Of a DNA stretch of 64,000 nucleotides, positions 7,931 through 55,919 are shown one piece after another. Within the stretch, counting starts at the first letter, position 1, and every line of letters starts with the position of its first letter. The notes under the pieces were generated by a model that saw only the letters and a list, made by a program, of their open reading frames with translations, was not told the DNA's origin and searched no databases. The DNA comes from Tubulanus polymorphus. Lineage: Eukaryota > Animalia > Nemertea. Location of the stretch: assembly GCF_964204645.1 (NCBI RefSeq), contig NC_134025.1:15066001-15130000 (forward strand). Reading direction: 5' to 3'. The translations under genes and the position numbers were made by a program.

Positions 7931-9889
7931 ATTATACAAATTCAGTCTAAGAGGTGGTGACATTGGATATTCAAAATTTTGATTCAGGACCAGTGTTCAC
8001 GTGAACCCGCGGTATCGTCTACCGTTTTACTTCCGGGTTTTATTTTAAGATTAGACTGGTTACCGGTCTCTATCTTCAATTAGAGACCGGTTGTGCCCAT
8101 CCTCCATTTTACATTCTCGATGCATGTCAAATAAGGTCAAACATGTGAAGTAGCAAGTTATTTTCTGGTTAACATGGCGTCTCTTCGAATCATCATCATC
8201 ATCATCACCATCATCTTTATTTTCCTTTTCAATTTCAGTTACATATAATGCAAAAACATTATTTACGTGTAGCTGGTGTTATAGCTTCCATTGTAATTTG
8301 CTGTTCTCAAGCCAATAAACCAATTCCCGGTTGTTTTTTTAAATTTTTACAGATTTTGTTCTGTTTTTTCTTTCGGTCGTTATATTCATTTGACGCATCA
8401 AAATCGCTTTCAACGATCAAATAGAGACGATTTGGCCCAGGTCAAGTTTGGCGATAGCGCGTTCACTCGCAAATCACCCATTCGATACAAAATAATGCTT
8501 AAGCAAAGCGAAGAGAGTCATTTCCGGAAACAGTTGCAATTCACGCAAAATAATTTGAATTGGGCTCGCGCTAAAATTTGGCTCGAATAAACAAAGGACA
8601 CAGTCGAGCCAAACAGACACGGCTACGGGCCCATTTGGCACCCGGTGAACAATTTATCCGGGCCAGAAGCACTCGTCTGATTGCGGCTATGTGTTATGCG
8701 ACCCGAAGAAATAACCAATCTGGGCTGTCTTTTTCATACACAACGATACGACTTGAAACGATTTGAGACAAAAAGGGAGAAGGTAAACGACTTATTCCAA
8801 ATAGGATATTCATGAAGTTCTCAAAATACTTACGTCAGATCGTTCACTGTGTCCTTTGTTTATTCGAAACATATACCGAACTGATTATAAAGCAAAGAGG
8901 ACATGTTTCTCAGTCGAAGAATGCCCGAATTTACGGTAGACTGCGTTTACCCCGGAGTTGATTACGCAATAATACAAGAGCACCATGGGGCCTTGACGCG
9001 TAGCTTCACGAATTATAAAAGATCTCAAGACCTGGCCTTCAATCAATTTCATACTTCGAATGCTCGAAGAAAAGGCATAAATCATTTCCATGACTTTTTT
9101 TTGCAGAAACTTGTTTTAAACGGAAATATCAAGATAAAAATAAAAGATTGCTTTTTTCAGAATTACATATGAATGATGAAAACACACCTTTTTCAACGTG
9201 ATGTTTTGGTAGAATATCAGAGGGGATCCATGCTTCAAGTAGTTAAAAAGCCTAACATTTCTCCACTTGAACCAAAGAATTCTTATATGAAAATGCGTCA
9301 AATGAGACGATCTCAAAATACATCAGGCGAATACGTGGTAGTGGGATTTCCCCAATGACTCAAATAGAGATCTTCCGATGCTGAAGGATTTCATTTATTA
9401 CATACGTACACTGTATGAAATTGAAATGAAGTTTGTTAGACAATTTATTATTATAAATATCAAAATTTCTTACAATAATACTTTATTACAATAATCAAAA
9501 TTCAAGATTTCAAGATATTTGTTTATTTAGCCAATCAGCGCACATTAAAAAATATTTAGTCAGGGCGCGCTTTCTCTAACACACTTCAGATCGTCCACAG
9601 TTAACATGGGTTTAACCACTTCGCATAAAAATTATTAGTTTGAAAAAGAACTGAAATCATCAGGCATTATACTTTTTATCAGCACAATTTTTCCAAAAAA
9701 GACTGATCGACCATAATTCACTCATGGTCTGGATTCCATCCGAGATTGTTTTATTGGAAATGGATTGAAAACCCCAGACATACGATACTTTATAAGCACA
9801 CTTGGAGCAATTCCCCGCAACCTTTCAAAAGTGATCAATAGCGAGCATGAGAGGGTACCAGATTTCCGAGAAATGTTAAGTCTTATGTT

Positions 9890-10798
9890 TAGGGGGTCTT
9901 AGGTTTAGTGACACCTATATATGATATACTAAACCTAAGACCCATAAACCTAAGAATAATGATATCATAGATAATGTTAATACAATTGAAACTAATGACA
10001 CCATAGATAATATAAAAGATAATGTCGATACAATCGAAACTAATGACAATGAAACAATTGATGATTCTAAAAAACATTGTAATGTTTGTAATTTAGATAT
10101 TTCTAAAAGTAATTTTTCGAAGCATAAAAATCTCAGGCGCATATAGAAAATGAAAGGGAGTTAGAAGAACATGAAAAGAAACTAGAAGAAATAAAAAGAA
10201 ATAAGACGTGTCAATATGTTTGTAATTTAGATATTTCTAAAAGTAATTTTTCGAAGCATAAAAATCTCAGGCGCATATAGAAAATGAAAGGGAGTTAGAA
10301 GAACATGAAAAGAAACTAGAAGAAATAAAAAGAAATAAGACGTGTCAATATTGTAATAAGAAAAAACCTGTTGATGAAAATACTCATTATAAATCAAAAT
10401 TACATCTAATTAATGTTTATAAAAATGTAAGTATGATACCATCGTTAAATAACCCAATGAAATATATCAAATATTTTGATCCTAAAACTAAACAATATTA
10501 TATATTCTATAAGTTGTTATTTGAAAAATTATTAGCTTATGCAGAAGATAATCCTAAACAAATATATAAATTATTGTATTCGAGAAAAATTGATTTAAGT
10601 TATCTAACAAAAAATTTTGGATATCATTTTGATTTCTATTTTGATGAATACTTTGAAAAATTAAGAGAAGGTCAGATACATACTAATTATCATAGAATGA
10701 TCGCTCAACTAAAATTAATAAATATACGTAAGCATTATTATGAATTAGATATAAACAAAGATGATTTTATAAACTTACTAGAAACAAAATTAGAATAA
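9890..10798 (+). pseudogene. Polinton U1/C2H2-type zinc-finger protein, frameshifted
   Basis: An N/D/T-rich linker is followed by CNVC..H..H and CQYC..HYKSKLH fingers and runs into ORF 10433-10798. The architecture parallels ORF 46569-47483. Confidence 0.5.
10082..10350 (+). repeat. 134-bp direct tandem duplication
   Basis: ATGTTTGTAATTTAG...CGTGTCAATA occurs at 10082 and again at 10216. Confidence 0.92.
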
Positions 10799-10805
10799 TT
10801 ATTGT

Positions 10806-11415
10806 AAAACTATTTATGATATTTATGTACTAGACGTACGAGTAAGAATCTAAGAATTCTTACTTTCTTACTCATACGTCTAGTACATACATATATAAAT
10901 TAGTTTTTATGAAAATTAAAAATATAAATTATTGATTGAAGTAAAGAAATAGTTATAACATAATCTATTTTTTCTATTTTTATTCAGTGAAAACATAATT
11001 TATTCATTTATATATATTTCATTTAATAATTTAAATTTGTAATTATTATAAACTGTTTATATATCTATGTGCTAGACGTACGTAAGAATCTTGGTAAGAA
11101 TCTTGGTAAGGATTCTTACGTACGTCTAGTACATAGATATATAAATAGTTTCAGAATAATTATTCTAAATATAAATTATATATTTGTACCCCTGTGTAAA
11201 CATAATTTATAAACATAGTTTTAATTTATTCATTATTATATATTTCATTTAATAATTTATATTTATAATTTTTATAAAATAAGGTATTTATATATCTATG
11301 TACGAGAGGTACGAGTAAGAAACCAAGATTCTTACTTTCTTACTTTCTTGGTAAGAATCTTGGTTTCTTACTCGTACGTCTAATACTTAGATATATAAAT
11401 AGTTATTTTAAAAAA
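10806..11415. repeat. Three tandem units of about 230-240 bp, each with a long imperfect palindrome
   Basis: TATGTACTAGACGTACG..TAAGAA.../...TTCTTAC..TACGTCTAGTACATA at about 10806-10908, 11041-11161 and 11271-11415. Confidence 0.85.
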
Positions 11416-16010: not shown

Positions 16011-16506
16011 CTAATATAACTGTAAATCTAGTCTGTTAGATTTAATTATATTTTCCTTCTTTTCAAGAGGCCTTAAATTTCTCCAATTCCAGATTAGCTT
16101 CATTTCATCATTGAACTGATATACAATCCATGATTTTAAGAATTCATCTGTACAACCCAATAAATTAGATAGTGTTGCTGAATGCGTTTGTTTGTTGAAT
16201 AATTGTGTTAATCTAGACCGTAAACATTGTTTCATTTTGAAATTAAGATCTGTTTTATATCTTTCTCTCATATATTCTGTCATATAATCATTATAATGTT
16301 CTCTATTATCTGCCCGATATTGCTTAGTATATAGTTTAATACAAGTTTTGCAGCAATATTGAAAACCACCTTTGCTAATGTTACGCTTACTAAATTCTGT
16401 TATAGTTAATTTATCTAATTCACATTTAGAACATTTCTTGTAGTATATATTTATAACGCCAGTGTTATTTTGTAATATTGATAGTTTGTGATTGTTCTGG
16501 CTCCAT
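16011..16506 (-). pseudogene. Zn-finger/HNH-like endonuclease with internal deletion (copy A)
   Basis: Homolog of 30624-31298 that lacks the HIDHVLP segment. Confidence 0.8.
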
Positions 16507-16582
16507 TTTAATATCAAATTTTTTATTAAAATTGATTTCATATGTTATTCATTTATATATAAATATATATGAACATTTTAAG

Positions 16583-16734
16583 AGTAAATAGGAATAAGTT
16601 GTTCTAGATTAAAGGTTGAGGGGTCGAATTCATAAGAAATGAAAAATAAATTCGAGTGTGCGAGAATTTATTTTTCATTTTTTATAAATTCGACCTCTCG
16701 ACCTTTGATCTAGAACAACTTATTCCTATTTACT
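16583..16734. repeat. Terminal fold-back hairpin of Polinton A
   Basis: Arms of about 71 bp (AGTAAATAGGAATAAG...ATAAATTC and GAATTTAT...CTTATTCCTATTTACT) surround the loop GAGTGTGCGA. Confidence 0.92.
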
Positions 16735-22589: not shown

Positions 22590-23415
22590 AGTAGTAATAG
22601 GGATAATAGGGGTTCAGGCCAAAGGTCGAGAGGTCGAGAAATTTTCCAAATATGAAAATAACAATAATTTCTAGTTGAATTAGTCGCGCACACTCCTAAT
22701 TGAACTAGAAATTATTATTATTTTCACATTTGTAAAATTTCTCAACCTCTCAACCTTTAACCTGAACCCCTATTATCTCTATTACTCTTAAAATATTCAT
22801 ATACACGAATAAAATATAAATGAATAACATATATAAGTAATAGGAAAAGTAGGGTTTCAGATCAGAGGACGGAGGACGAGCCATTATAGATAGATATATA
22901 GATATATTTTAAACATATTTCAATATTTATATTTGTATGAGTTAGATTTTTAAACATTAAAAGTGTCAGTAAAGTGTGATTGAAATAATTCATATATATA
23001 CATGAATAACATATAAATGAATAAAATATAAATGAATAAAATGTGTCAAATCAATTTTTAAAAAAATTTTATATTAAAATGGAAGCAAATAAGTACTACT
23101 GTTCAACATATAATATCAATATAGATAAATCTCAAAAATCAAGACACAATAAACCTAAAACACATTTAGAGAATAAATTGAAATTAGAATATGAAGATGA
23201 TATATTAGAAACTAAATTAGATGAATTAAAGAATGAAAAAGAAACATACACATGTGATACATGTAATCAATCACTTAGTGATAAAAGATATTATAATGAA
23301 CATTTAAAATCTAAAAGTCATATTAGAAATATGAATAATGATATTTTAGGTGAAGATTATTTTGATAATGACTGATAAGAAGCATAAGACAATTAAAAGA
23401 ATAAGAAATAAAATA
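22590..23415 (+). mobile_element. Polinton copy B: terminus plus 5' end of PolB
   Basis: Starts AGTAGTAATAGG, with a hairpin at 22593-22786. MEANKYYC... from 23079 is nearly identical to the PolB N-terminus at 52816. Confidence 0.88.
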
Positions 23416-23459: not shown

Positions 23460-25030
23460 TCCTGTTCAACGGTGGATTTCAACAAAGCATTTGATAAGGC
23501 TCAACATCAGCCATTACTGAACAGGCTATTAGGAAACAGTATCAATGATAGGTCCCCCAAATGGCACAGCAGTTATCTCTGAACGGAAACTTGTAACCGA
23601 AATCAACGGAACTTTTCATCTTGGAATGAGACGGTCTAACTAGTGGAGTCACGCAAGGTAGTATCCTAAGGCTGTTCGAATATCACGGATACCGGACACC
23701 GGACACCTAAATACCGGATACTCGAGATTGCGGAGTATATAGCGCATCGGGTCTAATGATCAGCGGTAAACGGCAGTTCGTGTGAGATCTAGTAGAAGAA
23801 TAAAAGGCCTATATTATTTTCATAATACATCGGTTTATGCTTTTCAAGTACAGTAGCATACAAATGTTACCGGTTTAGACAATTCAATACCGATTTATTG
23901 CTTCCGAGTAATAACACGATTACATACGACAGACACGGTAACACACAGTGGACAGAAAATATTTTTTATCATTCTGCCAATTTGAACGGATTACCGAATA
24001 GACCGTTACCGTTTTGGGCAGAGCTACTGTACAATACAAAATATCTTTATCATTCAGTTTCACGAAGAAGGCCATTTTAATCAAGTTAAGCGTTATTGAC
24101 GATCTATATTTTCATGATCTTTAGAATCAAATTTAACATCAGGGTAAATAGTCACTTCGAACTATGGTAGGAACCGGTATTCGACGAACTGATTTTTGAA
24201 GGTTATACTCAAACAATTGGTGTCCAGTGGTGTTGATTTTCGACGACCGCCATGGACTCAATTTCATTTTTAGGGACATCGTGATTGAGAATGAAATGTA
24301 GACATATCGTCCAATAAATAGAATATACCGAATATTCTCCTCCATAAAATAAGAAAACGAATTTTTATTCTTTGTTTGTAAATACTTGTATTTCATTGGT
24401 GTTCAGCTCAACTATTCCATCGTAAATCAACAAAATGTACAGATCTTTAAAACAAACTTTATTAGAAGGAACTTTAGAACTGCCAGACTCGCTTATGGCC
24501 TTCCAACTTGAGATATAGGGCCTAGCAGCACTCAGTCCTATTAATGAAAGGATTTTACAGAAAAACCAAAAAGGGCCACCAATACATATCCATCACCGGT
24601 GAAGTAAGATAATAAAAAATGAATATAACGTTTAACTTCACCTAACTAAAGAAAAACAGTATTCAGAAAGAAATATGTATAATATTGAGATCGATGATGA
24701 CACTAAAAACGTGAAAGCAGGCTGTATATTAAGACAAATAAGTTGGGTAGCCGCTGTAACAATTTGACATAAATGAATTGTGTGTCGCGGCAGTACTACT
24801 TACAACAGCACGGAAACGAATCCTTAGACCCGACGCGCTATATACTCCGCAATCTCGAGTATCCGGTATCCGGTATTTAGGTGTCCGGTATCCGGTATCC
24901 GTGATATTCGAACAGCCGTATCCTAAGTCGTCTTCTGTTTAATGTCCTGACAAATGACATACACAGTAATCCAAAATATACCAGACTGAGTAAATTTCCA
25001 AAACAACCTTAACACACTGTTCGACCAAAA
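23460..25030 (+). pseudogene. LINE RT fragment split by a MULE insertion
   Basis: DFNKAFDK and SGVTQGSIL lie before 23670. LLFNVLTND resumes after 24926. Confidence 0.7.
23670..24917. mobile_element. Non-autonomous Mutator/MULE-type DNA transposon
   Basis: TIRs of about 90 bp (GGCTGTTCGAATATCACGGATACCGG...) and a perfect 9-bp TSD GTATCCTAA (23661-23669 and 24918-24926). Confidence 0.9.
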
Positions 25031-25042
25031 ACTTAATGTTCC

Positions 25043-25240
25043 GATAAAACCAAAATAATGAATTGTCGCGGGCGATAAAACCACAATAATGAATTGTCGC
25101 GGGCGTTAAAACCAAAATATTGAATTGTTGCGGGCGATAAAACCAAAATAATGAATTGTCGCGGACGACAAAAACAAACTATTGAATTGTTGCGTGCGAC
25201 AAAACCAAAATAATGAATTGTCGCGGGCGACAAAACCAAA
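25043..25240. repeat. 31-bp tandem repeat, short array
   Basis: About 6 copies of AAAACCAAAATAATGAATTGTCGCGGGCGA(T/C). Confidence 0.92.
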
Positions 25241-25299
25241 CTAGGGGTCCAGGGACACCATGCTCACTTGGGCAGTGGTTTCAAATGCTCAACAATCTA

Positions 25300-26060
25300 A
25301 CAATTTCAATACATAACGCCCTCTAGTGACCATATACAAAAACCAATGACCTTGAAACCCACCACAATTAAAGAACATGTGAGCAGCTATGATTTTGTAA
25401 TTGATTGTGATAACAAAATATGCCTCGTTACCAATTTAATATGGAAATACTAAGTTATTCTACTATTCAACGCCCCCTGGTGACCATATGCAAAACCCAA
25501 TGACCTTAAAACTCACCACAATCGTAGTACATGTCATGAAATACAACTTTGCAATTGATCATAGTAACAAAATATGCCTAGGTACCAATCTAATAAGGAA
25601 ATACTAAGCCATTCTACTATTCAGCGCCCCCTGGTGACTATATGGAATAACTAATGTCCTTAAAAACTCACCACAATCATAGACGATGTCATGAACTACA
25701 ACTTTGCAATGGATCATGGTAACAAACTATGCCTAGGTACCAATCTAATAAGGAAAAACTAAGCTTTTCTACTATTCAACGCCCCCTGGTGACTATATGG
25801 AATAACTAATGTCCTTAAAAACTCACCACAATCATAGACGATGTCATGAACTACAACTTTGCCATTGATCATGGTAACAAAATATGCCTTGGTACAAATA
25901 TAATATAGCGATACTAAGTTATTGTATTATTCAACGCCCCCTGATGGACACATACAAAAACCAATGACCTTGAAGCTCACCAAAATCATGGAACACGTTA
26001 TGGGCTACAACTTTCCAATTGAATATAGTAACACAATATGCTTAGGTATCAATTAATTGT
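25300..26060. repeat. About 155-bp tandem repeat, about 5 copies
   Basis: A CGCCC(C)CT(G/A)GTGAC-type core recurs at about 25317, 25471, 25625, 25780 and 25935. Confidence 0.88.
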
Positions 26061-26396
26061 GGAAAAACTTTTTCCCACCTACGAATGAGTACTGATGACA
26101 CCATGATGGCCGCCAATTGCGTCATAATTGGCTGATCAAAAATACCTGTTCCAGGTATAAAACATCCCTCTCTAAAGAATATCCATCAGCAATTGCAATG
26201 AGAAATGGCAAACCAGAAGGAATCTACAGGACCTAGAATTCAGGCCAAAATTGACATTTTTGGGCACTAAAAAGGTCATAGGACGGCCATCTTGAGTCAG
26301 ATCGACCCAATTTTCTTATGCTGATGGGCCTTTGGTAGATTCAAATATAAACGAAAGATCAAGGTAATTGATCAAAGTGTCTTCAAAATTTTCTTT

Positions 26397-28290
26397 GGGC
26401 GACAAAACCAAAATAATGAATTGTCGCGGGCAATAAAACCAAAATAATGAATTGTCTCATGCAACAAAACCAAAATAATGAATTGTCGCGGGCAATAAAA
26501 CCAAAATAATGAATTATCGCGGGCGATAAAACCAAAATATTGAATTGTCGCGGGCGATAAAACCAAAATATAAAACCAAAATAATGAATTGTCGCGGGCG
26601 TCAAAACCAAAAGAAGAATTGTCGCGGGCGACAAAACCAAAATAATGAATTGTCGCTGGAGATAAAACCAAAGTAATGAATTCTCGTGGGCGATAAAACC
26701 AAAATATTGAATTGTCGCGAGCGACAAAACCAAACTAATGAATTGTCGCGGGCGTCAAAACCAAAGAAAGAATTGTGGGGGCAACAAAACCAAAATAATG
26801 AATTGTCGGGCGACAAAACCAAAATGGTGAATTGTCCAGGCGACAAAACCAAAATGGTGAATTGTCGCGGGCGACAAAACCGAAATAATGAATTGTCGCG
26901 GGCGATAAAACCAAAATGATGAATTGTTTCGGGCGATAAAACCAAAATATTGAATTGTCGCGGGCGACAAAAACAAAACATTGAATTGTCGCGGGCGACA
27001 AAACCAAACTATTGAATTGTCGCGGGCGACAAAACCAAAAAAAGAATTGTCGCGGGCGACAAAACCAAAATGGTGAATTGTCGCGGGCAACAAAACCAAA
27101 AAAAAATTGTCGCGGACGACAAAAACAAAATATTAAAAAAAAATAATGAATTGTCTCGGGCGACAAAACCAAAAAGAAGAATTGTCGCGGGCGACAAAAC
27201 CAAAATAATGAATTGTCGCTGGAGATAAAACCAAAGTAATGAATTGTCGCGGGTGATAAAACCAAAATATTGAATTGTCGCGGGCGACAAAACCAAACTA
27301 ATGAATTGTCGCGGGCGACAAAACCAAAAAAAGAATTGTCGGGGCGACAAAACCAAAATAATGAATTGTTGCGGGCGATAAAACCAAAATAATGAATTGT
27401 CGCGGGCGACAAAACCAAAATGGTGAATTGTCGCGGGCGACAAAACCAAAAAAATGAATTGTCGCGGGCGATAAAACCGTAATAATCAATTGTCGCGGGC
27501 GATAAAACCAAAATAATGAATTATCGCGGGCGACAAAACCAAAATAATGAATTATCACGGGCCATAAAACCAAAATATTGAATTGTCGCGGGTGACAAAA
27601 CCAAAAGAAATTGTCGCGGGCGACAAAAACAAAATATAAAACCAAAATAATGAATTGTCGCGGGCGATAAAACCAAAATAATGAATTATCGCGGGCGACA
27701 AAACCAAAATAATGAATTATCGCGGGCGATAAAACCAAAATATTGAATTGTCACGGGCGGCAAAACCAAAAAAAATTGTCGCGGGCGACAAAAACAAAAT
27801 ATAAAACCAAAATAATGAATTGTCGCGGGCGACAAAACTAAAAAGAAGGATTGTCGCGGGCGACAAAACCAAAATAATGAATTGTCGCTGGCGATAAAAC
27901 CAAAGTAATGAATTGTCGTGGGCGATAAAACCAAAATATTGAATTTTTCGCGGGCGACAAAACCAAAATATTGAATTGTCGCAGGCGACAAAATCAAAAT
28001 CAAAATCATTGTTTTCACAAAACCAAAAAAAAAAAATTGTTGCGGGCGACAAAACCAAAGAAAAATTGTCGCGGGCGACAAAAACAAAATATAAAACCAA
28101 AATAATGAATTGTCGCGGGCGACAAAACTAAAAAGAAGGATTGTCGCGGGCGACAAAACCAAAATAATGAATTGTCGCTGGCGATAAAAGCAAAGTAATG
28201 AATTGTCGTGGGCGATAAAACCAAAATATTGAATTTTTCGCGGGCGACAAAACCAAAATATTGAATTGTCGCGGGCGACAAAATCAAAAT
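26397..28290. repeat. 31-bp satellite array, about 60 copies
   Basis: Same unit as 25043-25240, with variants and higher-order duplicated blocks. Confidence 0.95.
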
Positions 28291-28889
28291 CATTGTTTTC
28301 TTGCGTTATTTTATTTTTTGTCGTTTTGTCGTAATGTCGCCCTCGTTTGCATATTCGTGTTTTTTATCGTATCAGCCACCATACTTAAGCCTTAAGGTCG
28401 CGTAAAACTCGATAAACACTTCAAGCGACACAGCGAACGATCTCCTTTCCTCCACAGCGAACGCTTACTCCGAATGTCAAGTGTGAGTCCAGCCTACGGA
28501 TAGGAGTGTGTTGTATACTTGTATTTAGTAAATACCTTGTGGATTTGACAATGATCGGTATGTACTGTAGGAAATATAGAGTATTGATGGTATTGATATA
28601 GAGGTTGAAGCCCGCGGCCGAATAAAGTAATATATTTCTTTATTTTGATACCTCGTCGACATAACAGCTTTTCTCCGTTATATCTCTTGTTTAGTTTAGG
28701 CCTACGACTCCCCGGTACACTTATGATTTATCATAGTAAATACACGGTTAATTTGGTAAAGAAAAATAGGTATTGCTAAACTAACTGCTTGACGCCCGCA
28801 GCCAAATCACTGGTAGTTATAAATTAATTTGTACTCGATTTGATTCTCATGATGGGGAGAAACTCGCAGCTGATCCCCGGAACGACGAT

Positions 28890-29293
28890 AGTAATAGGGA
28901 ATATCTTGTTTCAGGCCAAAGGTCGAACGGTCGAGTTCATTAAAAAACAAAACATTAAAATTAATTTAAAACTATAATATATTTTCATAACCGTGTGCAT
29001 TTTATATTAAAACTAAATATTTATTCTAAGATATCAATAACCTAAAAAGCATATTGTATTAAATCAATTGGTCGCTCCACTTCGCTACCGCTCCGCTCCG
29101 CGACCAATTGATTTATTTACAATACACAAATTCATATAATCAAATATATTTAAATAATAATAATTATTCTATTATTCAACTGAAATACACACGGTTATGA
29201 AAACATATTATAGTTTTAAATTACTTTTAATATATGTTTCTAATGAACTCGACCATTCAACCTTTAACCTGAAACAAGATATTCCCTATTACT
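28890..29293. repeat. Terminal fold-back hairpin of Polinton C
   Basis: AGTAATAGGGAATATCTTGTTTCAGG... pairs with ...CCTGAAACAAGATATTCCCTATTACT over about 110 bp. A loosely paired middle section leads to an inner stem AAATCAATTGGTCGC/GCGACCAATTGATTT. Confidence 0.92.
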
Positions 29294-29373
29294 CTTAAAA
29301 TATTCATATAAATGAATAACATTTAAATCATTGAACTTCTAATATCAATTTTAATAAAAAATTTAGTATTAAA

Positions 29374-29610
29374 ATGGAAGCAAATAAGTACTACTGTCCA
29401 ACATGTAATATCAATATAGATAAATCCCAAAATGCAAGACACAATAAAACTAAAACACATTTAGAGAATAAATTGAAACTAGAATATTTACAGTTATATT
29501 CAGAACAGTTAACAAAAGCAAAGAAATTTATTGAATTATGGAATAATGATCCAAATAATGAACAATACGTTGAGGATCCGATGTTTATACTAGAACATGA
29601 TTCTATTTGA
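29374..29610 (+). CDS. Chimeric ORF: TIR-encoded PolB N-terminal Zn finger joined to an HNH-gene C-terminal tail
   Basis: The first 38 aa match the PolB start. LQLYSEQLTKAKKFIELWNNDPNNEQYVE matches the tail of 30624-31298. Confidence 0.6.
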   Translation: MEANKYYCPTCNINIDKSQNARHNKTKTHLENKLKLEYLQLYSEQLTKAKKFIELWNNDPNNEQYVEDPMFILEHDSI

Positions 29611-30623: not shown

Positions 30624-31298
30624 ATGGAACCAGAACAACCACAAATTATCAATATTACAAATAACACTGGTGTTATAAATATATATTACAAGAAGTGTTC
30701 TAAGTGTGAATTAGATAAATCATTAACAGAATTTAGTAAGCGTAAGATTAGCAAAGATGGTTTTCAATATTGTTGTAAAACTTGTACTAAACTATATACC
30801 AAACAATATCGAGAAGATAATATAGAACATTATAATTATTATATGGCAGAATATATGAGAGAAAGATATCAAACAGATCTTAATTTTAGATTGAAACAAT
30901 GTTTAAGATCTAGATTAACACAATTATTCAACAAAGAAACACATTCAGAAACGCTATCTAATCTATTGGGTTGTTCAGATGAATTTCTCAAATCATGGAT
31001 TATATTTCAATTCGATGATAAAATGAATATAGATAATTATGGGGATTATTACCATATTGATCACGTGTTACCAATATCTAAATTTAACATGAATGATGAA
31101 TACAATAAAAAACTTATTTGGAATTGGAAGAATTTAAGACCTTTAGAAAAGAAAGAAAATCAAATCAAATCTGATAAACTAGATTTTCAGTTATATTTGG
31201 ATCAATTAGATAAAGCAAAGACATTCATTGATCAATGGAACAATATTCCAAATAATGAACAATACGTTGAGGAATTTGATATCAAGGATCCGAAATGA
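30624..31298 (+). CDS. Zn-finger plus HNH-like endonuclease (large-DNA-virus type)
   Basis: CSKC...CKTC followed by HIDHVLPISKF...WNWKNLRPLEKKEN. The 224-aa ORF is intact. Confidence 0.75.
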   Translation: MEPEQPQIINITNNTGVINIYYKKCSKCELDKSLTEFSKRKISKDGFQYCCKTCTKLYTKQYREDNIEHYNYYMAEYMRERYQTDLNFRLKQCLRSRLTQLFNKETHSETLSNLLGCSDEFLKSWIIFQFDDKMNIDNYGDYYHIDHVLPISKFNMNDEYNKKLIWNWKNLRPLEKKENQIKSDKLDFQLYLDQLDKAKTFIDQWNNIPNNEQYVEEFDIKDPK

Positions 31299-32577: not shown

Positions 32578-33659
32578 ATGAAAAAAGAACAATATTTAAG
32601 AGATTTATATTATAACCCAGAAAGTGAAGTATCATATTCTAACGTTTCAGAATTATGGAATAAAATTAAATCTGATAATAGTGATATAAAATATAGTGAA
32701 TTAAAATCATGGTTACAAAACCAACCAACATATCAAATCCACAAGAAAATGGATAAAACTTATTTAACAAGAAAAGTTATGGTTTCATATATCGATCAAC
32801 AATGGCAAGCAGATTTAATTGACATGAAGAACGTAGAAGAATACAACTAAGGATATTTCTGGATACTGAATGTTATAGACATATTCAGTAGATACGCATG
32901 GTCAATTCCAATCAAAAATAAAACTGGAAAGTAACAAATGCTTCTAAATCTATATTTAAAGAAGCTATTCCAGATAAGATACAATTTGATGAAGGTAAGG
33001 AATTCTATAACAAACATTTTAAAAAACTATTATCTGATAACGATGTAGATTATTTTTCAACACACTCAGATAAAAAAGCATCTATTATAGAAAGGTTTAA
33101 TAAAACATTGAAAACTAGAATGTGGAAATATTTTACTGCTAATGAAACATATAAATATATCGATGTGTTAGATGATTTAGTGAAAGGTTATAATAATTCT
33201 AAACATAGTTCTATAAATATGAAACCTATACAAGCTAGAAAAGAAGATAATTCGGAAATAGTTTGGAATAATTTATATGGTGCGTTTGTTACACATGATT
33301 TCGGTGAACCTAGATTCAAAATTGGACAACACGTTAGAATATCTAAATATAGAAAAACATTTTATAAAGGTTATACCCCTAATTTTACTGAAGAAATATT
33401 TAAAATTAAAAAGATAATATTAACTAAACCTTTTGTTTATAAATTAGAAGATCTAAAAGATGAAGAAATATTAGGTTATTTCTATGAACAAGAATTATCA
33501 CTTGTACCAAATCCAGATGAAATAGAATATAAAATAGAAAAAGTATTGAAAACAAAAACTCTTAAAGGAAAAAAGTATTCTTTGGTGAAATATAAAGGAT
33601 ACGATGATAAATTTAATGAATGGATTCTATCTAGTAAAATCAAAAGAATAAATGAATAA
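32578..33659 (+). pseudogene. int: RVE (retroviral-type) integrase with chromodomain
   Basis: WQADLIDM, DIFSRYAW, FDEGKEF and IERFNKTLK, with C-terminal YKIEKVLK..LVKYKGYDDKFNEW. Has a stop at 32848-32850 and a frameshift. Confidence 0.92.
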
Positions 33660-34266
33660 AGATTTATTTATATTTGAACCGCATAATATGTTAGTTACTG
33701 GAGTAACCAATTGTGGTAAAACACATTTCATATTAGATTTGTTAGAAACTATTTATAAAAATCATTTTGATAATATAATATTATTCTGTCCTACTTATGA
33801 AATGAATAAAACATATAATAGAGATATAGTTAAGATAAAAAAGTTTATTATATTAAATCCTAAAACAGTAAAAGAAAATTTAGATAATTGTATTAAAATA
33901 GCAATTGATACTTATAAAGGATCAAATACATTATTCATTATAGATGATTGTGCAAATTCACATGATTCAAAAGTTAGAGAAAGTGAGTTATGTTATCTAG
34001 CTTTCTCTGGGAGACATTTTGGGATAACAACATGCATGGTTTTAAATCAAAAATATAATTCAATTGTTAAAGACTTTAGGGAGAATATAAGATTTCTTGT
34101 TTTATTCTACAATAAAGATAGAAAATCTATGCAACAATCATTGGAAGAAAATCAAATTACACCTACTGAATTACATGATGAATATATGAATAAATTAAAG
34201 AATAATAAAGGTTCAAAATTATTACTGAGATTACAATTTCCCTATGAATATAAATTTATAAAATAA
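33652..34266 (+). CDS. A32/FtsK-like genome packaging ATPase
   Basis: Walker A GVTNCGKT, Walker B LFIIDD and the SGRH motif. Confidence 0.9.
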   Translation: MNKDLFIFEPHNMLVTGVTNCGKTHFILDLLETIYKNHFDNIILFCPTYEMNKTYNRDIVKIKKFIILNPKTVKENLDNCIKIAIDTYKGSNTLFIIDDCANSHDSKVRESELCYLAFSGRHFGITTCMVLNQKYNSIVKDFRENIRFLVLFYNKDRKSMQQSLEENQITPTELHDEYMNKLKNNKGSKLLLRLQFPYEYKFIK

Positions 34267-38758: not shown

Positions 38759-39165
38759 ACATGATATCAAAAAATATAAAGTAACCATGATTAAAAATAA
38801 ATAATTAATTTTTTTGTTAAATAAATGAGTGGGAGTTATATAAGTCCTTCTAAGATTTCTAGAATATCTAATGCTATTAAAGCAGAAAGATCACATCATA
38901 TAATTACTCATAACCCTTCTAATATTAATCCCGATGAAACTTTATATGTTAGAATTCCGAGATTAACACTTAAATACTTTTTATGTTCCAAATAGTATTT
39001 ATTTATCAGCTGATATAAAAGTAATCGGTAATAATAATAATAATTATGTTGTTGATAATGTTGGAAGATATTTGATTAAAAAGTTAACAATAAAGATTGG
39101 TCCGGAAACAGTTTTCTCATTAGATGATTATAATTTATTTATGCATTATAAAGATTTATGGTTAA

Positions 39166-39638
39166 TGTGAAGTCAATGTATATGTTATATGTAAAGTTAT
39201 TTGTTTGTATAAAGTGTAACGGTAGTTGGTCGTTCTTTTGTTCGTTCTCTTGTCAGTATTCCAGTATTCGGTAGTATTGTGTTGTATTGTTGTTGTTGTC
39301 TGGTATTGTTATTTTCCCGCCTCAAAGTTTATTGGCATATCCGTTTCCGGGTTACTCCCGCATTTTGTGTAATATTTTTGGCACTTGGTCGTTCGAGCTC
39401 CTCGGAGTATCAGTGCTTGTCTGTGTGCTTGCTATATTGGAATCTCCCTCAGTCGTCATGTAAGTTTTGTGCAAATTTATATTAATTAATTATTGTAACT
39501 GTTTACAACATTTCCTACCCTTATAATATTTGTTTTTGTAGAAACGTGTAATATTCGTCGTTTGTTTTTTGTCGTCGTAATTTGAAAATAAACGCATCAA
39601 TGAGAAGTATCGACTGACTTCGTTTGTCATTTGCAACA
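39166..39638 (+). repeat. BEL/Pao 5' LTR
   Basis: TGTGAAGTC...TTGCAACA. Two differences from the 3' LTR seen by eye. Confidence 0.95.
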
Positions 39639-42600
39639 CTGTTTATGACGAGGGAGATGGCATCACTTGACGAGAAGGTTAAATCGAGAGCGGGTTTCAA
39701 GGCCAACGTCACAAAAAGAAGCAACATCCTTCGGAAGGCGTTAAAAGAAGGGCTACCGTATGATGATGTAAAGAAATTAATCGACGACGTTACACAATCG
39801 TGGGAAAAGTTCGAAAACGCGCACGACGCCGTTCATTGTCTGTATATCGAAGATGATGACATTGAAAATTCATATATGTATTTCGATCGGGAAGAGAAAA
39901 AGTATCGCGAGTTGCTAGAAAAGGCAACCAAAGTTCAAAGTCCTGTGGTTTCGGATTCCGTAGCTGCGTCAACAGGCAATAGTGATAGTGATCTTGCTGC
40001 GATGGTAAAAAGTCTAAAACGAATGGCTTTACCACAACAAGAACTGCCAATTTTCGGCGGTGATCCTATTGAATATTGCTATTTCGTAAAAGCTTTTGAA
40101 AATATAATCGAAAGAAAAACCGATTGCAGTAGCCAAAGGCTGTATTATCTAATGCAATATACGCGCGGTGAGGTGAAAGAGTTAGTGCGAAGCTGCATGG
40201 AGCAACCACCAGACATCGGGTACTCAGAGGCGAAGCGTTTGTTGAAAGAACACTACGGTAACAATTATATAATTGCATCAGTACTTGTTGATAATTTAAT
40301 TGAAGGCCCGGTGATAAAATCAGAAGATGGTCAAGCTCTCCATAATTACTCTATGAAACTTATAAGTTGTAAGAATACTTTGGGTGAAATAGGCTACTTA
40401 AGTAAGGTTGAAAACCCAGATAATCTGCGCCGAATTATAGCTAGACTCCCTTATGATTTGCGTAAAAAATGGCGTGTCAAAGCAGATTATATCACTACGT
40501 TTAATGATCGCGAAATTCGACTTGACGATATTTCTAATTTTGTTCAATCGGAAGCTAGAGTGTTAAATCATCCGGTTTTCGGTAAGCTTTCCGATGGTTA
40601 TAAAATATCCGATTTAAGTGGTCAAAGCTCTTTATCCAAAGGCGGTTGTCGAAAACCTAATAATCCAGTCGGACAGTTGGGCCAGCGTAATTTTGCTATC
40701 AGCTCGTATAATCAATGTATGAATCGTAATCAAAATCAACGAGTTAATCTCGATACTATTAGAACACCCAGTTCTACGGTTTGTCAATTGTGTTCAGTTA
40801 GTAATCATTCTTTGTCAAACTGCTACAAATTCAGAGGGTACTCATATGACCAGAGGGTTAAGGTATTGAAGCAGAAGCGGTTATGTTTTTTATGTTTAGG
40901 TCAAAACCATATCGCGCAGCAATGTCAAAGTAGGGAATTCTGCGAAGTGTGTCACAGTCGACACAACACGCTATTGCACAGATACACTTTGTCGCCAAAC
41001 GTTGTCAATAGTAGTTCTGTACCTTGTTCAAATCGGCTTACGGAAGGAATGATTCACCACGATAATCGTAATTCACCACAGCCATCGACGGCAACTGGCA
41101 ATGTGACAGAAAATGGGCAAAGTTTATCTGCAACCAATCAGTGCGTTAAACAAAATATAACACGTCGCATAGGTTTGCCAATAGTGCCAGTGAAAATCAA
41201 GGGTTGTGGTGGGTTCGAATTTATTACATACGCCTTGTTAGATACCGGCAGCACCTCTACATTCTGCAACGAAAATCTGATAAAAGATTTAGGATTTATT
41301 TACAGTGACTTGCGTCAAACTAACCTATCGTTATCAACTTTGACAGAGGCTGATAATTTGACTCAATCTTATGTAACTGACTTGAAAGTATCGGACTTAG
41401 ACGGAACATACAGTACGGAATTGACAAATGTATTTTCGAGACCTTCTTTGCCTATGTCTGAGAAAGACATTCCCAGACAGTCCGATTTAAACGGATACTC
41501 GTATTTAAGCGGTGTTGTTTTAGCTGACGTCAATGCTTACGTTGGGCTAATCGTAGGTAATGACAATCATCACGTGTTAGAGCCCTTAGAGGTCATAAGT
41601 AGCACCAACGGAGGGCCCCACGCTGTCAAAACTATATTTGGGTGGGCTGTCAATGGTCCTCTTGGTGGGAGTACATGTGTAACCAACAAAATGGCCTTTA
41701 GCATAAATAGAAACGAAGATAGACGCGACAGCGAACTGACGAGACAATTTCAGCTATATTGCGACTTAGAATTCAATGATCGAATTTCGGATGATACTAA
41801 ATGCATGTCTCAAGAAGACAAACGGGCTTTAGAGATTATGGAATCATCCGTCACTCTAACTGACGATAAGCATTATCAAATAGATTTACCCTTTCGGGAT
41901 GAACAGATTAATATGCCCAATAATAGGGCTTTGGCTTTACATCGTTTGAAAAGTTTGAAAAAACGTTTTCTCAGCGACCCTATGTTGTTGAAAGAATATG
42001 CCGATTTCCTTGATAATATGATAAAATCTGGATTCTGTGAGAAAGTTCCTACAATTGACTTAGATCGAGACGACGGTATGGTCTGGTACCTACCACATCA
42101 CAATGTATATCACCCTACAAAAAAGAAAATCAGAGTCGTGTTTAATTGTTCATCGAAATATTTGGAATTCTCGTTGAACGATCATCTTCTTCAAGGCCCC
42201 GACTTGACGAACTCCCTGCTTGGAGTTTTGACAAGATTCAGGCAAGAAAGAATAGCCTTTATTGCGGATATTGAAGGAATGTTCCACCAAGTCCGAGTGA
42301 CGCCGTCGTTGTGCGATGCCTTACGGTTTTTATGGTGGACGAATCGTAATTTAGACGCTAATCCAGATGAATACAGAATGCGCGTGCATCTTTTTGGTGC
42401 AACATCTTCGCCTTCTTGCAGCAGTTTTGCTCTTCGAAGGTGCGCATTGGACAACACAGAATTATTCGATGCTACTGTAACTGATACCGTTCTGCGTAAT
42501 TTTTATGTAGACGATTGTTTGAAATCCGTCGGGACTGTTCACGACGCAGTAAGACTTTTGAGCCAATTGATCGAAATTTTAGATAAAGGGGGATTTCGGT

Positions 42601-45049
42601 TAACTCAAATTTCATCGAATTCTCGACAGGTACTTGAAAGCGTGCCAGAGACCGAAAGGGCAAAAACGATAAAAGATTTAGATTTCAATATTGAGCAACT
42701 GCCTATGGAGCGTACTCTTGGCGTATTATGGGATATGGAGTCTGACTCATTACTTGTTCGAGTTAAAATCGACCATTCGAAGCCCAAAACTAGACGTGGT
42801 ATCTTATCTACGGTCAGTTCCCTGTATGTCCCTATCGGATTTACTTCACCTATATCATTGCCCGTAAAATCATTGTTACAAGAGATGTGTAGGATTAAGT
42901 TAGGGTGGGATGACATAATTCCCGCCTGGTGCGATGAGTTTTGGTTGAAATGGCTAAACGAATTACCTAGTTTAGAAGGTTTACGCATCGGTAGATGTTT
43001 TAAACCATCAGGCTTCGATGATCCAATATCCGCTCAGTTACATCATTTTTCTGATGCTGCTGAGATTGGATACGGTGCAGTTAGTTTTCTGAGGTTATTC
43101 GATGGCACGACGGTGCATTGTAGTTTCGTGCTCGGTAAGTCTAGAGTGACGCCTCTGAAAACCGTGAGCATTCCACGACTTGAGTTGGCCGCTGCAGTTT
43201 TGTCAACGCGACTCGACGGCATGATACTAAAAGAGATCGACATACCTATCGAAACCTCATATTTCTGGACGGACAGTACAGCAGTCCTCAAATATATTCG
43301 AAACGAGGATAAACGGTTTCAAGTTTATGTAGCAAACAGGGTGTCAGCAATAAGAGAACACTCTAAACCATGTCAATGGCGCTTCATCGATGGCTGCCTC
43401 AACCCAGCTGATGACGCTTCTCGCGGTTTAAAGCCAACTGAACTTATTATCTCGTCGAGATGGTTAATGGGACCAGAGTTTCTTTGGAGAGATGAATCTC
43501 AATGGCCCAAACAGCCAGATGACGTGAATTTTGATATAGACCCTTCCGATCAAGAGTTAAGAAAGACGGTTAACACGGTTGAGGTGGACGAAGACCATCT
43601 ACTTAACTCATTCAGTCAATTTTCTTCTTGGTACAAACTCAAGAAATGTGTAGCCTGGATCCTGAGGCTCAAATCTCGACTATTGAGTAGAGTTCGGAAA
43701 ATCGACTCTGTGGTGAAATCCAATCGTATAACAGTTTCCGAGTTGAGACGTGCAGAGAATGCAATATTAGGTTACGTACAAAAACGGTATTACCCTGACG
43801 AATGCAGTCACTCTCTTAAAAGGACAAGTTCCCTTATCCCGTTAGATCCTGTCTTGGTTGACGGACTCCTTTGTGTAGGTGGCCGTCTCAGGCGCTCGAC
43901 ATTACCGGATAAACGTAAACACCCAATCATAGTTCCAAAGAAAAGCCACCTATGTACATTAATTATTGATTATTATCATAGAGTGTATGCGCATAGGGGG
44001 TGTGAGTACGTCTTATCAAACATTAGAAAGAAATATTGGCTAATTAACGCTAAATCGGCTATTAGGCGTAGATTAAATGCCTGTATTACTTGTAGGAAAC
44101 AAAGGGCTAAGGCTGTAGGACAAAAGATGTCTGACCTACCAGAAGATAGGGTTACTCCGAATTTACCCCCATTTACAAATGTGGGGATCGATTGCTTTGG
44201 GCCGTTTCTCGTCAAACGGGGCCGGGCGCAAGTTAAACGTTACGGTTGTTTGTTTACGTGTCTCACCTGTCGGGCTATTCACATCGAAGTTTGCCATTCT
44301 TTGAGTACCGATTCATTTATTTGTGCACTCCGTCGGTTTATCTGTCGACGCGGTAACCCCTTACGTATCAGGAGTGATAATGGTACAAACTTTGTTGGAG
44401 GCCAACGGGAGTTAAAAAAGGCGGTATCCGAATGGAATCAAGATCAAATTCACGAGTTCCTTTTGCAGCGTGAAATTGAATGGGTTTTTAATCCACCAAC
44501 TGCCTGACACATGGGTGGTGTGTGGGAGCGAATGATTAGGTAAGTGCGCGAAATTTTAGGTTGCGTATTAAGTGAACAAATCGTAGATGACGAAGGGTTG
44601 AGTACCTTGTTCTGCGAAGTGGAATGTATTGTAAACGGGCGTCCACTTACTGCAACATCGGATGACCCCAACGATTTAGACGCACTATCACCTAATCATT
44701 TGCTCTTACTTCGTTATGGGCCTGATTTACCACCTGGGAAATTTACGGATATTGATAATTATTCGCGAAAACGTTGGCGCCAAATTCAATATCTCGCTGA
44801 CGTGTTTTGGCGTAGGTGGTCAGCAGAATATTTTCAAAATGGTTTGAGTCGCGTAAAAACCTCTCGGTAGGAGACTTAGTCTTAATTGTGGATAATCAAG
44901 TCTCACGAAGTTTATGGCCTATGGCACGTGTACTGAACACATATCCAGATAAAGAGGGTCACGTTAGGAAAGTGCGTGTTAAAACAAAAAATGGTGAGAT
45001 TATACGACCCGTCCATAAATGTGTTTTCTTGGAAGGTTGCGAAAAGTAA
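39624..45049 (+). pseudogene. pol: BEL/Pao gag-pol polyprotein (gag, Zn knuckles, protease, RT, RNase H, integrase)
   Basis: CFLCLGQNHIAQQC, LLDTGS, FYVDD, HFSDA, GIDCFGP and SDNGTNF. Open for 1627 aa, then stops at 44505 and 44541 and a frameshift in the integrase tail. Confidence 0.95.
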
Positions 45050-45147
45050 ATTTAAGACGTTTTCGCTCGTTGAATTAATAGTAATTCACGTTTTTCACGA
45101 GTTTCGTTTGATTAAATTCCCTTTAAGTAATTTAATGAGGCCGGGAA

Positions 45148-45620
45148 TGTGAAGTCAATGTATATGTTATATGTAAAGTTATTTGTTTGTATAAAGTGTA
45201 ACGGTAGTTGGTCGTTCTTTTGTTCGTTCTCTTGTCAGTATTCCAGTATTCGGTAGTATTGTGTTGTATTGTTGTTGTTGTCTGGTATTGTTATTTTCCC
45301 GCCTCAAAGTTTATTGGCATATCCGTTTCCGGGTTACTCCCGCATTTTGTGTAATATTTTTGGCACTTGGTCGTTCGAGCTCCTCGGAGTATCAGTGCTT
45401 GTCTGTGTGCTTGCTATATTGGAATCTCCCTCAGTCGTCATGTAAGTTTTGTGCAAATTTATATTAATTAATTATTGTAACTGTTTACAACATTTCCTAC
45501 CCTTATAATATTTGTTTTTGTAGAAACGTGTAATATTCGTCGTTTGTTTTTTCTCGTCGTAATTTGAAAATAAACGCATCAAGGAGAAGTATCGACTGAC
45601 TTCGTTTGTCATTTGCAACA
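45148..45620 (+). repeat. BEL/Pao 3' LTR
   Basis: Direct repeat of 39166-39638. Confidence 0.95.
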
Positions 45621-46568
45621 GTTAACTAAAGAAAATAGAAATAATATGATATTTCAAGGAATCCAATCAGAAAACCAAAATAAATTAAGATCAGAAGCTA
45701 ATAGCGCAATATTAACTAATGCTGTAGATAAATTGATAAAAAGTATATATGGAAGCAAATATAAAATTCCATTAGACTTTGAATTGATAAATAATAATGC
45801 ACCTTTATATAAATACGCAATTCAAGAGGATATTATATTTGAGATAACATTTGCTCCTGTAAATGAAATTGTATTATCTAGCGTTAATAAAGATATGGGT
45901 TATAAATTATCGAATATATGTTTAGAATATGATACAGTAACTGATGAAAATATTTCAAGTATAATTCAAACTCAATACAATCAAGGATTTTCATTATTAT
46001 ATGATTATATTGATAAATTTAAAACCGTAACTATTAATGCAAATGATGAAATAATTAATGAGAATATTAACTTCCCAAGAAGATCTATTAAAGGTATATT
46101 AATATTTTTTACCATTGCAACATATACTAATGGCGCAATAAATGTTGATAATTATTATAATCCTGAAATAACAAAAGTAGAAATAACTATAGAAGGAATA
46201 GCAAATAAAATATCTGGTCAAGGAATGAGAATCATAGATCAATGGCCAGAAATTAGAAAACATTTTATGAATGAAAAAGTAAAATCATCTGAAAATTGTA
46301 ATATTAATCAAATTGATTATTATACCGGTAATAAATACGCATTATGGTTAGATTTTAGAACAACAGAGGATTATTCATTACATGGTTCTGGAAAAAAATT
46401 ACAAAACACTAAAGATGGAATACAATTATTCATGACAAAGAATAAAGGAATCAAAAATTTTAAAATGCACATTTATATTATATCTGACGCGCAATTAAAT
46501 ATTGTAAATTCACAATTAGATAGTGTTATGTATTAAAATTTTAACTTTAATAAAAATTTATTATATAA

Positions 46569-47483
46569 ATGGAAGGAGGTAAAGTATATAAACATATTCC
46601 ATACATCGATACACATGAAAATAATGATGGTTTATATTATATAATACCTTGTAATATAGCTTTGATATTTGATCCTATTTTCAAAATTTATAAAACTAAA
46701 CTAATAGAAATCGATAATAATAAAAGTGAAGTTGTTAATAATTTAAGTAATGTAATTGATAATAATGTAATACCTACTACATCTAATAATATAATACCTA
46801 CTACATCTAATAATATAATACCTACTATATCTAATAATATAATACCTACTACATCTAATAATGAAATAATATTTAATGTTAGTGAAAATAGAAATTATTG
46901 TGATTATTGTAAAGGTGAATTTTCAAACGCTCCATCAAATTGGAATAATCATATGAATACAAATTCACATATTACTAATGTTATAGAACGTGTTGGTATA
47001 AGAGAATTTATAGAACACCCATTTGTTTCAAATAAAAAAGTAGATGGTAAAGATTTATATAAAGATTTATTAGGTGAATTTTTATCTAAGGAACCTAGTA
47101 ATGATAAATTAGATTTATCTGCTGCTAAAAAAATACTAGAATCAAGCATTGTAAATACAATATTAAGGTCAAACACTAATAAAGATAATAATGAAAATGG
47201 TGCCATACGGCACCCACATGGTGATATAGTTACAGATAAGCATATTGATAATAAAGATTCTATGAAACATAAAGTAGAAAATAATGATAAATTTGATTGG
47301 ATGAATAAGTATAACAATGATACAACTATTGATGATATAAATGAGATGACTAATAAGTATATCAATGAACCAATTATTGATGTAGATTCGGTAGAGCATT
47401 TGAATAGATTGTTAGGGTCTGATGATGAATTGGAGAGTGATGATGAAAGTGATTCAGAAAGTAATTATAATTATCTCACATAA
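46569..47483 (+). CDS. Polinton zinc-finger protein with SNNIIPTT repeats and acidic tail
   Basis: Intact 304 aa with CDYC...HMNTNSH and a 24-bp coding tandem repeat of about 4 copies. Confidence 0.7.
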   Translation: MEGGKVYKHIPYIDTHENNDGLYYIIPCNIALIFDPIFKIYKTKLIEIDNNKSEVVNNLSNVIDNNVIPTTSNNIIPTTSNNIIPTISNNIIPTTSNNEIIFNVSENRNYCDYCKGEFSNAPSNWNNHMNTNSHITNVIERVGIREFIEHPFVSNKKVDGKDLYKDLLGEFLSKEPSNDKLDLSAAKKILESSIVNTILRSNTNKDNNENGAIRHPHGDIVTDKHIDNKDSMKHKVENNDKFDWMNKYNNDTTIDDINEMTNKYINEPIIDVDSVEHLNRLLGSDDELESDDESDSESNYNYLT

Positions 47484-47703
47484 TATATTAGTTGAAAATT
47501 GTATAAAATAATAGTAAATAAAAAATGGGGTTTTAAGTATTAAGGTATCTAATACATATCTAATACGTATCTAATACGTATCTAATACGTATTATTTGAA
47601 AATGCTTTAAATTATATTTCTTTTTTAAATTTATATTGAAACCTCAGTAATAGTAAATAACCTTTATTATTTTCAAACTTATTCATATATTAGTTGAAAA
47701 AAA

Positions 47704-52816: not shown

Positions 52817-53005
52817 TTTAATACTAAATTTTTTATTAAAATTGATTTTAGAAGTTCAATGATTTAAATGTTATTCATTTATATGAATATTTTAAGAGTA
52901 ATAGGGAATATCTTGTTTCAGGTTAAAGGTTGAATGGTCGAGTTCATTAAAAACATATATTAAAAGTAATTTAAAACTATAAAATATTTTCATAACCGTG
53001 TGCAT
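52703..53005. repeat. Right TIR of Polinton C, truncated inside the hairpin
   Basis: Reverse complement of about 29185-29487. Only the inner arm (52897-53005) remains. Confidence 0.9.
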
Positions 53006-55890: not shown

Positions 55891-55919
55891 AATAAATAAT
55901 TAATTTTTTTGTTAAATAA

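Follow-up and report, generated by a model that had tools for sequence, protein, structure and literature searches.

The locus described here raises the question of why a virus-like element should end in long, imperfect DNA palindromes, and whether one strand of these ends in particular is under selection to fold. Polintons are widespread, and several groups of eukaryotic DNA viruses have them at their root; accounts of how they exit the chromosome and start replication rest on models. In the window, a 64,000-nucleotide stretch of Tubulanus polymorphus DNA, a single kind of AT-rich, virus-like element is present in several copies alongside other repeats. The best-kept copy (C) extends from position 28890 to about 53005, and two partial copies have ends at positions 16734 (A) and 22593 (B). 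The ends in the window begin with AGTAA, and each copy keeps at most one of them.

Terminal palindromes in the window

The initial annotation proposed that the three intact termini are long palindromes, and all three are found where it had placed them, together with the outer and inner arm motifs that it quoted. The palindrome at the left end of element C (positions 28890-29293) is 404 nt long, and the strand favoured to fold is the minus strand, whose 3′ end is at position 28890, a terminus that is confirmed by sequencing reads. Its loop contains CGCT(C/A)C-type repeats, also as proposed. Palindrome B (22593-22786; 194 nt; minus strand) is the left end of an incomplete copy whose body continues to about position 23415, and palindrome A (16583-16734; 152 nt) forms the end of element A at position 16734, with the plus strand being the 3′-ended strand. 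Both A and B carry tandem G.A pairs at the tip. The terminal inverted repeats of C match at 98% over 303 nt, with the matching part of the left repeat located at positions 29185-29487 (plus strand) and the right repeat at 52703-53005 (minus strand). The right end is incomplete, being cut off at position 53005 inside the palindrome, but the inner arm (52897-53005) is retained there, including the T-type marks described below. The palindromes are the outermost part of the Polinton terminal repeats and are located at the exact ends of the elements.

An assembly artefact was rejected because whole-genome reads cover the entire palindrome at the C end. About 12% of the run yields several hundred-fold coverage in each direction, indicating a high-copy family. 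Exactly at position 28889, the flanking repeat is broken, with 3432 of its reads continuing differently behind this position, and mixed flanks are found ahead of position 28890 in 197 reads. The left flank of C (28700-28889) is itself a high-copy repeat that is split by the insertion at 28889. In addition, read joints between positions 28925 and 29283 reveal far shorter versions of the terminal hairpin in which 300 to 347 nt are skipped, some with tips like those of A or B.

The predicted fold of palindrome C is well separated from those of 100 shuffled sequences (z = -23 for the minus strand and -20 for the plus strand). Folding each strand separately, as the initial annotation had suggested, indicates that the 3′-ended strand is the more stable one as DNA in each of the three palindromes, with energies of -60.9 versus -55.2 kcal/mol for A, -75.2 versus -66.8 kcal/mol for B, and -116.1 versus -103.6 kcal/mol for C. 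The same strand also folds better when RNA energies are used. In the predicted folds of A, B and C, the 3′ end lies flush on its template.

Gene content and classification of the element

A stand-alone gene for an endonuclease VII/HNH-like protein is found near the left end of C (30624-31298, plus strand; phrog_1035, E = 2.3e-18), and a second copy of this gene lies directly inside palindrome A (16011-16541, minus strand). A likely retroviral-type integrase with a chromodomain is present in pieces (32578-33659, plus strand), as judged from a Chromo match (E = 4e-5) and from sequence. The integrase pieces in the window match Chromo only, with no match to rve, and the integrase of the relative L177 matches rve at an E-value of 2.9e-7, which is just under the cut-off. 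The A32-type packaging ATPase (33652-34266, plus strand) matches PF04665 (E = 3.5e-11). The likely gene for the major capsid protein, putatively of the double jelly-roll type (39032-46536, plus strand), is interrupted by an LTR retrotransposon (39164-45620), and its product shares about 35% identity with a family comprising 1904 unnamed proteins. A second copy of the capsid gene at position 55920 matches Capsid_N at an E-value of 0.0012, below the cut-off. Adjoining the incomplete right end of C, positions 53017-56703 hold a second partial copy of the middle genes.

The gene for a protein-primed family B polymerase (pPolB) is divided between two ORFs on the minus strand of copy C. The ORF at 49133-51082 carries the polymerase itself (PF03175, E = 1.4e-18; PF02945, E = 3.4e-5; and a motif), and its nearest named relative, at 41% identity, is from a coral. 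The N-terminal ORF (51470-52816), which starts inside the right repeat, carries zinc fingers and predicted terminal-protein (LF/PAD-like) and vOTU domains. Its structural model (pLDDT 82) resembles a Y-family little-finger domain (4ir1_F; Z 8.0, rmsd 2.8, 94 aligned) and a viral OTU protease (6oar_A; Z 7.5, rmsd 3.4, 104 aligned), with fold matches of Z 7.5-8.1 being middling by the tool's own note. A Foldseek search against the PDB yielded no match at E ≤ 0.001. The best viral match of this ORF is to Drosophila-associated adintovirus 2 (E = 3e-16), and the polymerase contains the cysteine motif of the vOTU domain. As judged from these models, the polymerase keeps its terminal-protein and vOTU domains, and the predicted priming module is apparently working.

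Terminal-protein and vOTU domains ahead of the polymerase constitute the pPolB layout described for Polintons (PMC11071308). Because the polymerase has this layout, a Polinton/adintovirus-type name fits the element better than the PLV label of the initial annotation. Polintons, Mavericks and adintoviruses also resemble the element in having a pPolB with terminal-protein and vOTU domains, an A32 ATPase, a likely integrase and capsid protein, and terminal inverted repeats (PMC8097293, PMC8502044, PMC10748475, PMC11071308). The ends in the window start with AGTAA, and AGT-type ends together with a 6-bp target duplication are found in the relative L177, which has its gene set in common with the element. 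In contrast, these sources in their relevant sections describe plain repeats, with no mention of palindromes or hairpins in PMC8097293 and none of hairpins in PMC10748475. For an adenain-type maturation protease, there was no Pfam or motif match in searches that are insensitive and were applied to decayed copies. No match to a Pfam family of HUH Rep proteins or tyrosine recombinases was found among the 28 ORFs of the window.

A nuclease insert in the polymerase was considered as a possible partner of the hairpin ends. An endonuclease VII motif is present within the polymerase at 85 of 168 loci, and the L177 polymerase instead has a presumably Vsr-like motif. The 85 loci include L106 (which is clipped) and L121 (in which 100 N are present), neither of which showed a hairpin. 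Since the insert thus also occurs without hairpins, its association with hairpin ends was rejected. Both HNH and VSR inserts have been described in Polinton polymerases (PMC10748475).

Terminal hairpins in related elements

The relatives comprise 170 loci, nearly all retrieved by way of the polymerase, and longer stretches taken from three host-contaminated bins. Of the 170 loci, most stop short of an element end. Terminal palindromes are present in seven relatives (L126, L054, L071, L192, L177:169-282, L177 and L175/L176), including two complete elements that have hairpins at both ends, namely L177 and L175/L176, the latter with ACAC-type ends. The palindromes range in size from 84 to 404 nt, with arms of about 40 to 200 nt. 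The inner arms of L126, L175/L176, L177:169-282 and L192 carry a small insertion near position 20.

In L077, which is a complete element, there is no terminal hairpin, and protein-primed Polintons therefore do not need one. On a quick tree of the polymerase, hairpin ends are scattered and cluster no more than shuffled labels (154 of 500 shuffles), which suggests repeated gain or loss. The end pattern of the window itself had no match in metagenome contigs, two end patterns yielded 14 and 21 matches in viral contigs with none within a palindrome, and a capsid alignment matched no viral contig. The prokaryote bins G001 and G003 contain eukaryotic DNA, with 173 and 5 matches to Polinton polymerases, respectively. 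The stretches sampled from the Polinton-rich bin G001, taken irrespective of true element ends, revealed no AGT- or ACAC-type terminal hairpin.

Two arrangements among the relatives were observed separately. At L177:169-291, the hairpin end of one Polinton lies 8 nt from the point at which a second one is inserted, which suggests that insertions cluster near ends. At L216:14867-15365, a 499-nt unit located near capsid fragments has inverted ends of the AGT type and contains direct repeats; it is possibly a non-autonomous mini-element.

Strand polarity of the mismatches

Most mismatches in the window palindromes had been described as G.T on the strand whose 3′ end is at the terminus and as C.A on the other strand. 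The raw count for A, B and C agrees with this description (26 G.T versus 3 C.A), although it takes in the poorly aligned middle of C. When only mismatches in a well-paired context are counted, there are 20 G.T versus 3 C.A (p = 2.4e-4). Three of the G.T pairs in C (inner positions 29187, 29204 and 29240) differ from C's own right repeat, with those at 29204 and 29240 also differing from about 99% of reads and the remaining one from 24%. These pairs are private or polymorphic, and their removal by hand leaves 17 versus 3. One further G.T pair, at position 28936, is present in most reads.

The polarity extends to the relatives. Across 10 elements, the 3′-ended strand carries 28 G.T versus 3 C.A mismatches (p = 2.3e-6), a count in which the ends are not independent, since A, B and C have marks in common and four ACAC-type ends are related, so that the effective number is about five lineages. 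The seven elements outside the window contribute 8 G.T and no C.A (p = 0.004). L177 and L175 have one G.T each, and L054 has well-paired mismatches without any G.T. A corresponding comparison of G.A with C.T in the stems alone (14 versus 6 in the 10 elements; p = 0.058) is not significant. The polarity count left out L077:377-684 and L111:4298-4644, which have perfect arms around unrelated interiors; L216:14867-15365, with short arms and a non-palindromic interior; L176:4382-4549, L178 and L189, which have no recognisable Polinton end there; and the second ends of L177 and L175, which belong to the same element.

The recurrence of the same mismatches across copies is also borne out, with positions 28 (non-CpG) and 35 (CpG) being C in the outer arm and T in the inner arm in all of A, B and C. 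Because the non-CpG position 28 carries the same marks in all three ends, CpG decay is insufficient on its own, and it was ruled out as the sole cause given that the marks at positions 27/28 are non-CpG and fixed. Pairwise comparison of the outer arms of A, B and C over the first 45 nt gives 14, 11 and 8 differences. Pairing is maintained in both hairpins at 29 of these 33, in keeping with the co-variation that the initial annotation proposed to examine. The marks at positions 28 and 35 outlast this turnover of adjacent pairs. Reads also carry matched changes in both arms, as observed for positions 28905 (56%) with 29278 (69%), 28904 (19%) with 29279 (17%), and 28994 (27%) with 29191 (19%).

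Mismatches of this kind are predicted to be tolerated on the 3′-ended strand only, and that strand therefore likely folds into a DNA hairpin. We consider it very probable, on sequence evidence, that there is selection for a single-stranded DNA hairpin on the 3′-ended strand. This proposal, made initially for the window, holds outside of it and is joined by an independent signature at the hairpin tips.

The tandem G.A motif at the hairpin tips

Tandem G.A pairs in such a context are stable in DNA. A strict tandem G.A tip, flanked by Watson-Crick pairs, is found on the 3′ strand of 6 of the 10 elements and on the 5′ strand of none, and the background of the whole tip motif is 151 occurrences in 2.66 Mb of strand. 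These six ends have the sequence motif for a predicted 3′-strand fold with sheared G.A pairs. The identical tip recurs at ends with unrelated arms. As judged by eye, the motif lies beside a bulge in L054 and L177, and L054 has a GCA triloop. C and L126 fail the strict test, and the latter has a GAA loop. The tip of C (29076-29099, minus strand) is a 24-nt purine-rich run of GGA/GAA units for which drawing by hand allows either a symmetrical stem rich in G.A pairs or a set of GNA mini-hairpins. A variant at position 29079 (about 32% of reads) would turn a G.T pair of this drawing into G-C. Mini-hairpins of the GNA type have a much greater stability in DNA than in RNA, withstand nucleases, and are present at origins (PMC13037366).

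An unrelated 110-nt palindrome at L071:338-447 apparently, by eye, has a tandem G.A tip as well, and the motif may therefore be common to other palindromic mobile elements.

Orientation of the ends

Poxvirus telomeres are covalently closed hairpins that exist as flip and flop isomers in equal amounts. Like the ends described here, they are imperfect and often AT-rich (mentioned in PMC11296320), but a single orientation is found in the present case, with the same polarity at 12 of 12 ends, all in integrated copies. Among reads aligned at 91% similarity, again representing integrated copies, no full flop form is present at 8% or more. The reads at the C end differ at 58 places at 8% or more, of which 40 are listed. 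The totals for each kind of change allow at most two unlisted A>G and at most three unlisted C>T changes, whereas a flop end needs four of each, and the full flop form is thus below about 8%. Reads lying entirely within the palindrome cannot separate flip from flop. The comparison with poxvirus telomeres made in the initial annotation is not supported, since no flip/flop was found in the ends or the reads.

Possible functions of the 3′-strand hairpin

The reading we favour, tentatively and at a little under even confidence, is that the 3′-strand hairpin could serve as a local duplex origin for protein-primed initiation, by analogy with Streptomyces telomeres. The element would pass through a single-stranded stage as a displaced or excised strand, in which the 3′ end would fold locally rather than with the far repeat 15-25 kb away. 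The 5′ end, with its C.A and T.C mismatches, would fold less well. The polymerase and terminal protein would then start at the 3′-terminal bases of the short duplex and displace the inner arm. Initiation at this site would copy the end without inversion and leave the integrase with ordinary ends. The inner copy would be marked as inactive by the fixed differences between the arms, located 20-40 nt from the end, such that excision or integration would use the outer copy. All of the evidence comes from integrated copies.

Streptomyces telomeres are likewise protein-primed, have a 3′ strand that folds with sheared G:A pairs and GCA loops, and carry a terminal palindrome that can fold back on an inner one, as in the present case (PMC4513846). 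They differ in having several tightly packed short palindromes that are patched after internal initiation, and in using a Tap protein (PMC4513846), whereas the ends described here form one long stem each on an integrating virus-like element. The likeness is one of analogy, not kinship. A point against a purely origin-based reading is that the folded 3′ end, flush on a template that runs into the body of the element, is also a ready primer, and fold-back extension has been seen in vitro with Streptomyces ends (PMC4513846).

The main rival is self-priming with asymmetric resolution in the style of the left end of minute virus of mice (MVM). The folded 3′ end would prime the second strand to generate a dimer bridge, and a nick at the outer-type arm alone, made by the endonuclease VII-like or Vsr-like domains, would restore one orientation. 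This scheme fits the flush 3′ ends of A, B and C, and the first 19-28 nt are usually perfectly matched and co-varying, as copying between arms predicts. A nuclease gene beside the end and a nuclease insert in the polymerase are on hand, and a priming role for terminal hairpins has been suggested elsewhere (bioRxiv 10.64898/2026.07.28.741278). In MVM and other parvoviruses, a 3′ hairpin serves as a primer, and a small asymmetry activates one arm for asymmetric resolution (PMC1185569); the inner-arm insertion near position 20 noted above resembles the arm-silencing GA/GAA spacer of MVM. However, MVM has a small single-stranded genome and needs the HUH protein NS1 (PMC1185569), and neither an HUH Rep nor a tyrosine recombinase was matched among the 28 ORFs of the window. 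Moreover, the predicted terminal-protein and vOTU domains are kept, the endonuclease VII motif also occurs in L106 and L121, in which no hairpin was observed, and in 85 of 168 loci, and no flop-type junctions are found at 8% or more. We regard self-priming as somewhat unlikely.

A composite of these two schemes is doubtful. Replication would combine protein priming with a parvovirus-like asymmetric resolution of hairpins. In several animal-type Polinton lineages, a repeatedly evolved 3′ hairpin that carries G.T marks and is capped by sheared G.A pairs would act as origin, primer and excision mark, and the endonuclease VII-like or Vsr-like insert of the polymerase, cutting mismatches or junctions, would be the resolvase.

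It is improbable that the palindrome is instead an excision signal, with replication being ordinary thereafter. In this scheme, a cruciform or lagging-strand fold, nucleated by the G.A tip, would be cut at the outer arm by the integrase or the endonuclease VII-like protein. T4 endonuclease VII is known to resolve junctions, and nuclease genes are present in the element, but the nuclease assignment is a family label with putative activity. The G.A and GNA tips would nucleate folding, and the arm marks would be most needed when both copies are internal. A model in which Polintons loop out as a single strand, restated in PMC4046053, is compatible with such a signal. A cruciform, however, folds both strands and does not alone explain selection on one of them.

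It is also very unlikely that fold-back copying at free ends produced the palindromes as mere by-products, which conversion then kept alike, with polarity arising from strand-biased mutation and not from function. The scattered hairpin ends on the polymerase tree (154 of 500 shuffles), the hairpin-less L077, the range of arm lengths from about 40 to 200 nt, and the shorter forms in reads would fit this reading. Nevertheless, the same tandem G.A tip occurs with unrelated arms and cannot be made by deamination, and the marks at 28 and 35 persist while adjacent pairs change. By our reasoning, strand displacement would also expose the 5′-ended strand near the firing end and thus create the opposite C-to-T bias.

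Scarcely plausible is an outward transcript that forms a G.U-rich hairpin as a terminator, processing signal or silencing trigger, a role raised in the initial annotation and consistent with G.U as a normal RNA wobble and with the better fold of the 3′-ended strand under RNA energies, but disfavoured because the ORFs adjoining both ends of C read inward (the 3′-ended strand is therefore antisense there), positions 9500-30500 yield no Rfam match, GNA triloops favour DNA (PMC13037366), and the stem stops at the last base of the element.

Relation to previously described ends and significance

The initial annotation considered hairpin ends to be undescribed for this group. With regard to terminal palindromes this does not stand, since they have been reported for Halocafeteria virophages and PLV subtype 4 with hairpin priming proposed (bioRxiv 10.64898/2026.07.28.741278). 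The polarity of the mismatches does appear to be new, and the main text of that preprint on protist viruses makes no mention of mismatch, imperfect, flip or wobble. Those elements are similar in being integrase-bearing DNA viruses with palindromes in terminal repeats flanked by target duplication. They mostly lack pPolB, and the palindrome given as an example is 52 nt, whereas the ends described here span 84-404 nt and are accompanied by a pPolB with predicted terminal-protein and vOTU domains, fixed polarised mismatches and G.A tips. For an alternative origin of the palindromes, the same preprint cites Kapitonov and Jurka 2006. Another paper (10.1101/2022.05.25.493380) concerns protein hairpins only. 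Neither strand-polarised mismatches nor G.A tips were found in the literature on Polinton ends, a scope that leaves aside supplements and Kapitonov and Jurka 2006.

The palindrome as such is thus no longer new. What is new is that the mismatches are strand-polarised, that the G.A tip recurs, that the orientation is fixed, and that these features co-occur with a predicted protein-priming module. Judged from comparisons among copies and relatives, the end structure is real and very probably selected. The polarity provides sequence evidence for a selected single-stranded DNA stage, and it identifies the strand and the bases that matter. It further suggests convergence of Streptomyces, parvoviruses and Polintons on one telomere design, with a folded 3′ strand, a sheared G.A cap and arm asymmetry. 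If true, a hairpin origin for protein priming would reveal how widespread Polintons begin replication, and the ends supply short, defined DNA substrates for test-tube assays.

Additional repeats in the window

Several other repeats and palindromes are located near the copies of the element. A third, diverged copy of the end motif in outer-arm orientation lies just inside palindrome B (22836-22885), and a long 31-bp tandem array occupies positions 25005-28323 between copies B and C. A 75-nt imperfect palindrome (9881-9955) is located close to the far end of element A. Element A also contains three more long internal hairpins (10806-10907, 11040-11168 and 11270-11415) between convergent ORFs. 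These hairpins have a core motif in common, lack a G.A tip and do not consistently favour either strand, and they may be transcription end signals. At the related junction in C (47482-47691), short repeats take the place of the hairpins. Finally, five repeats of 43-63 nt at positions 61515-61791 include a small internal hairpin that by eye resembles the T-arm of a tRNA.
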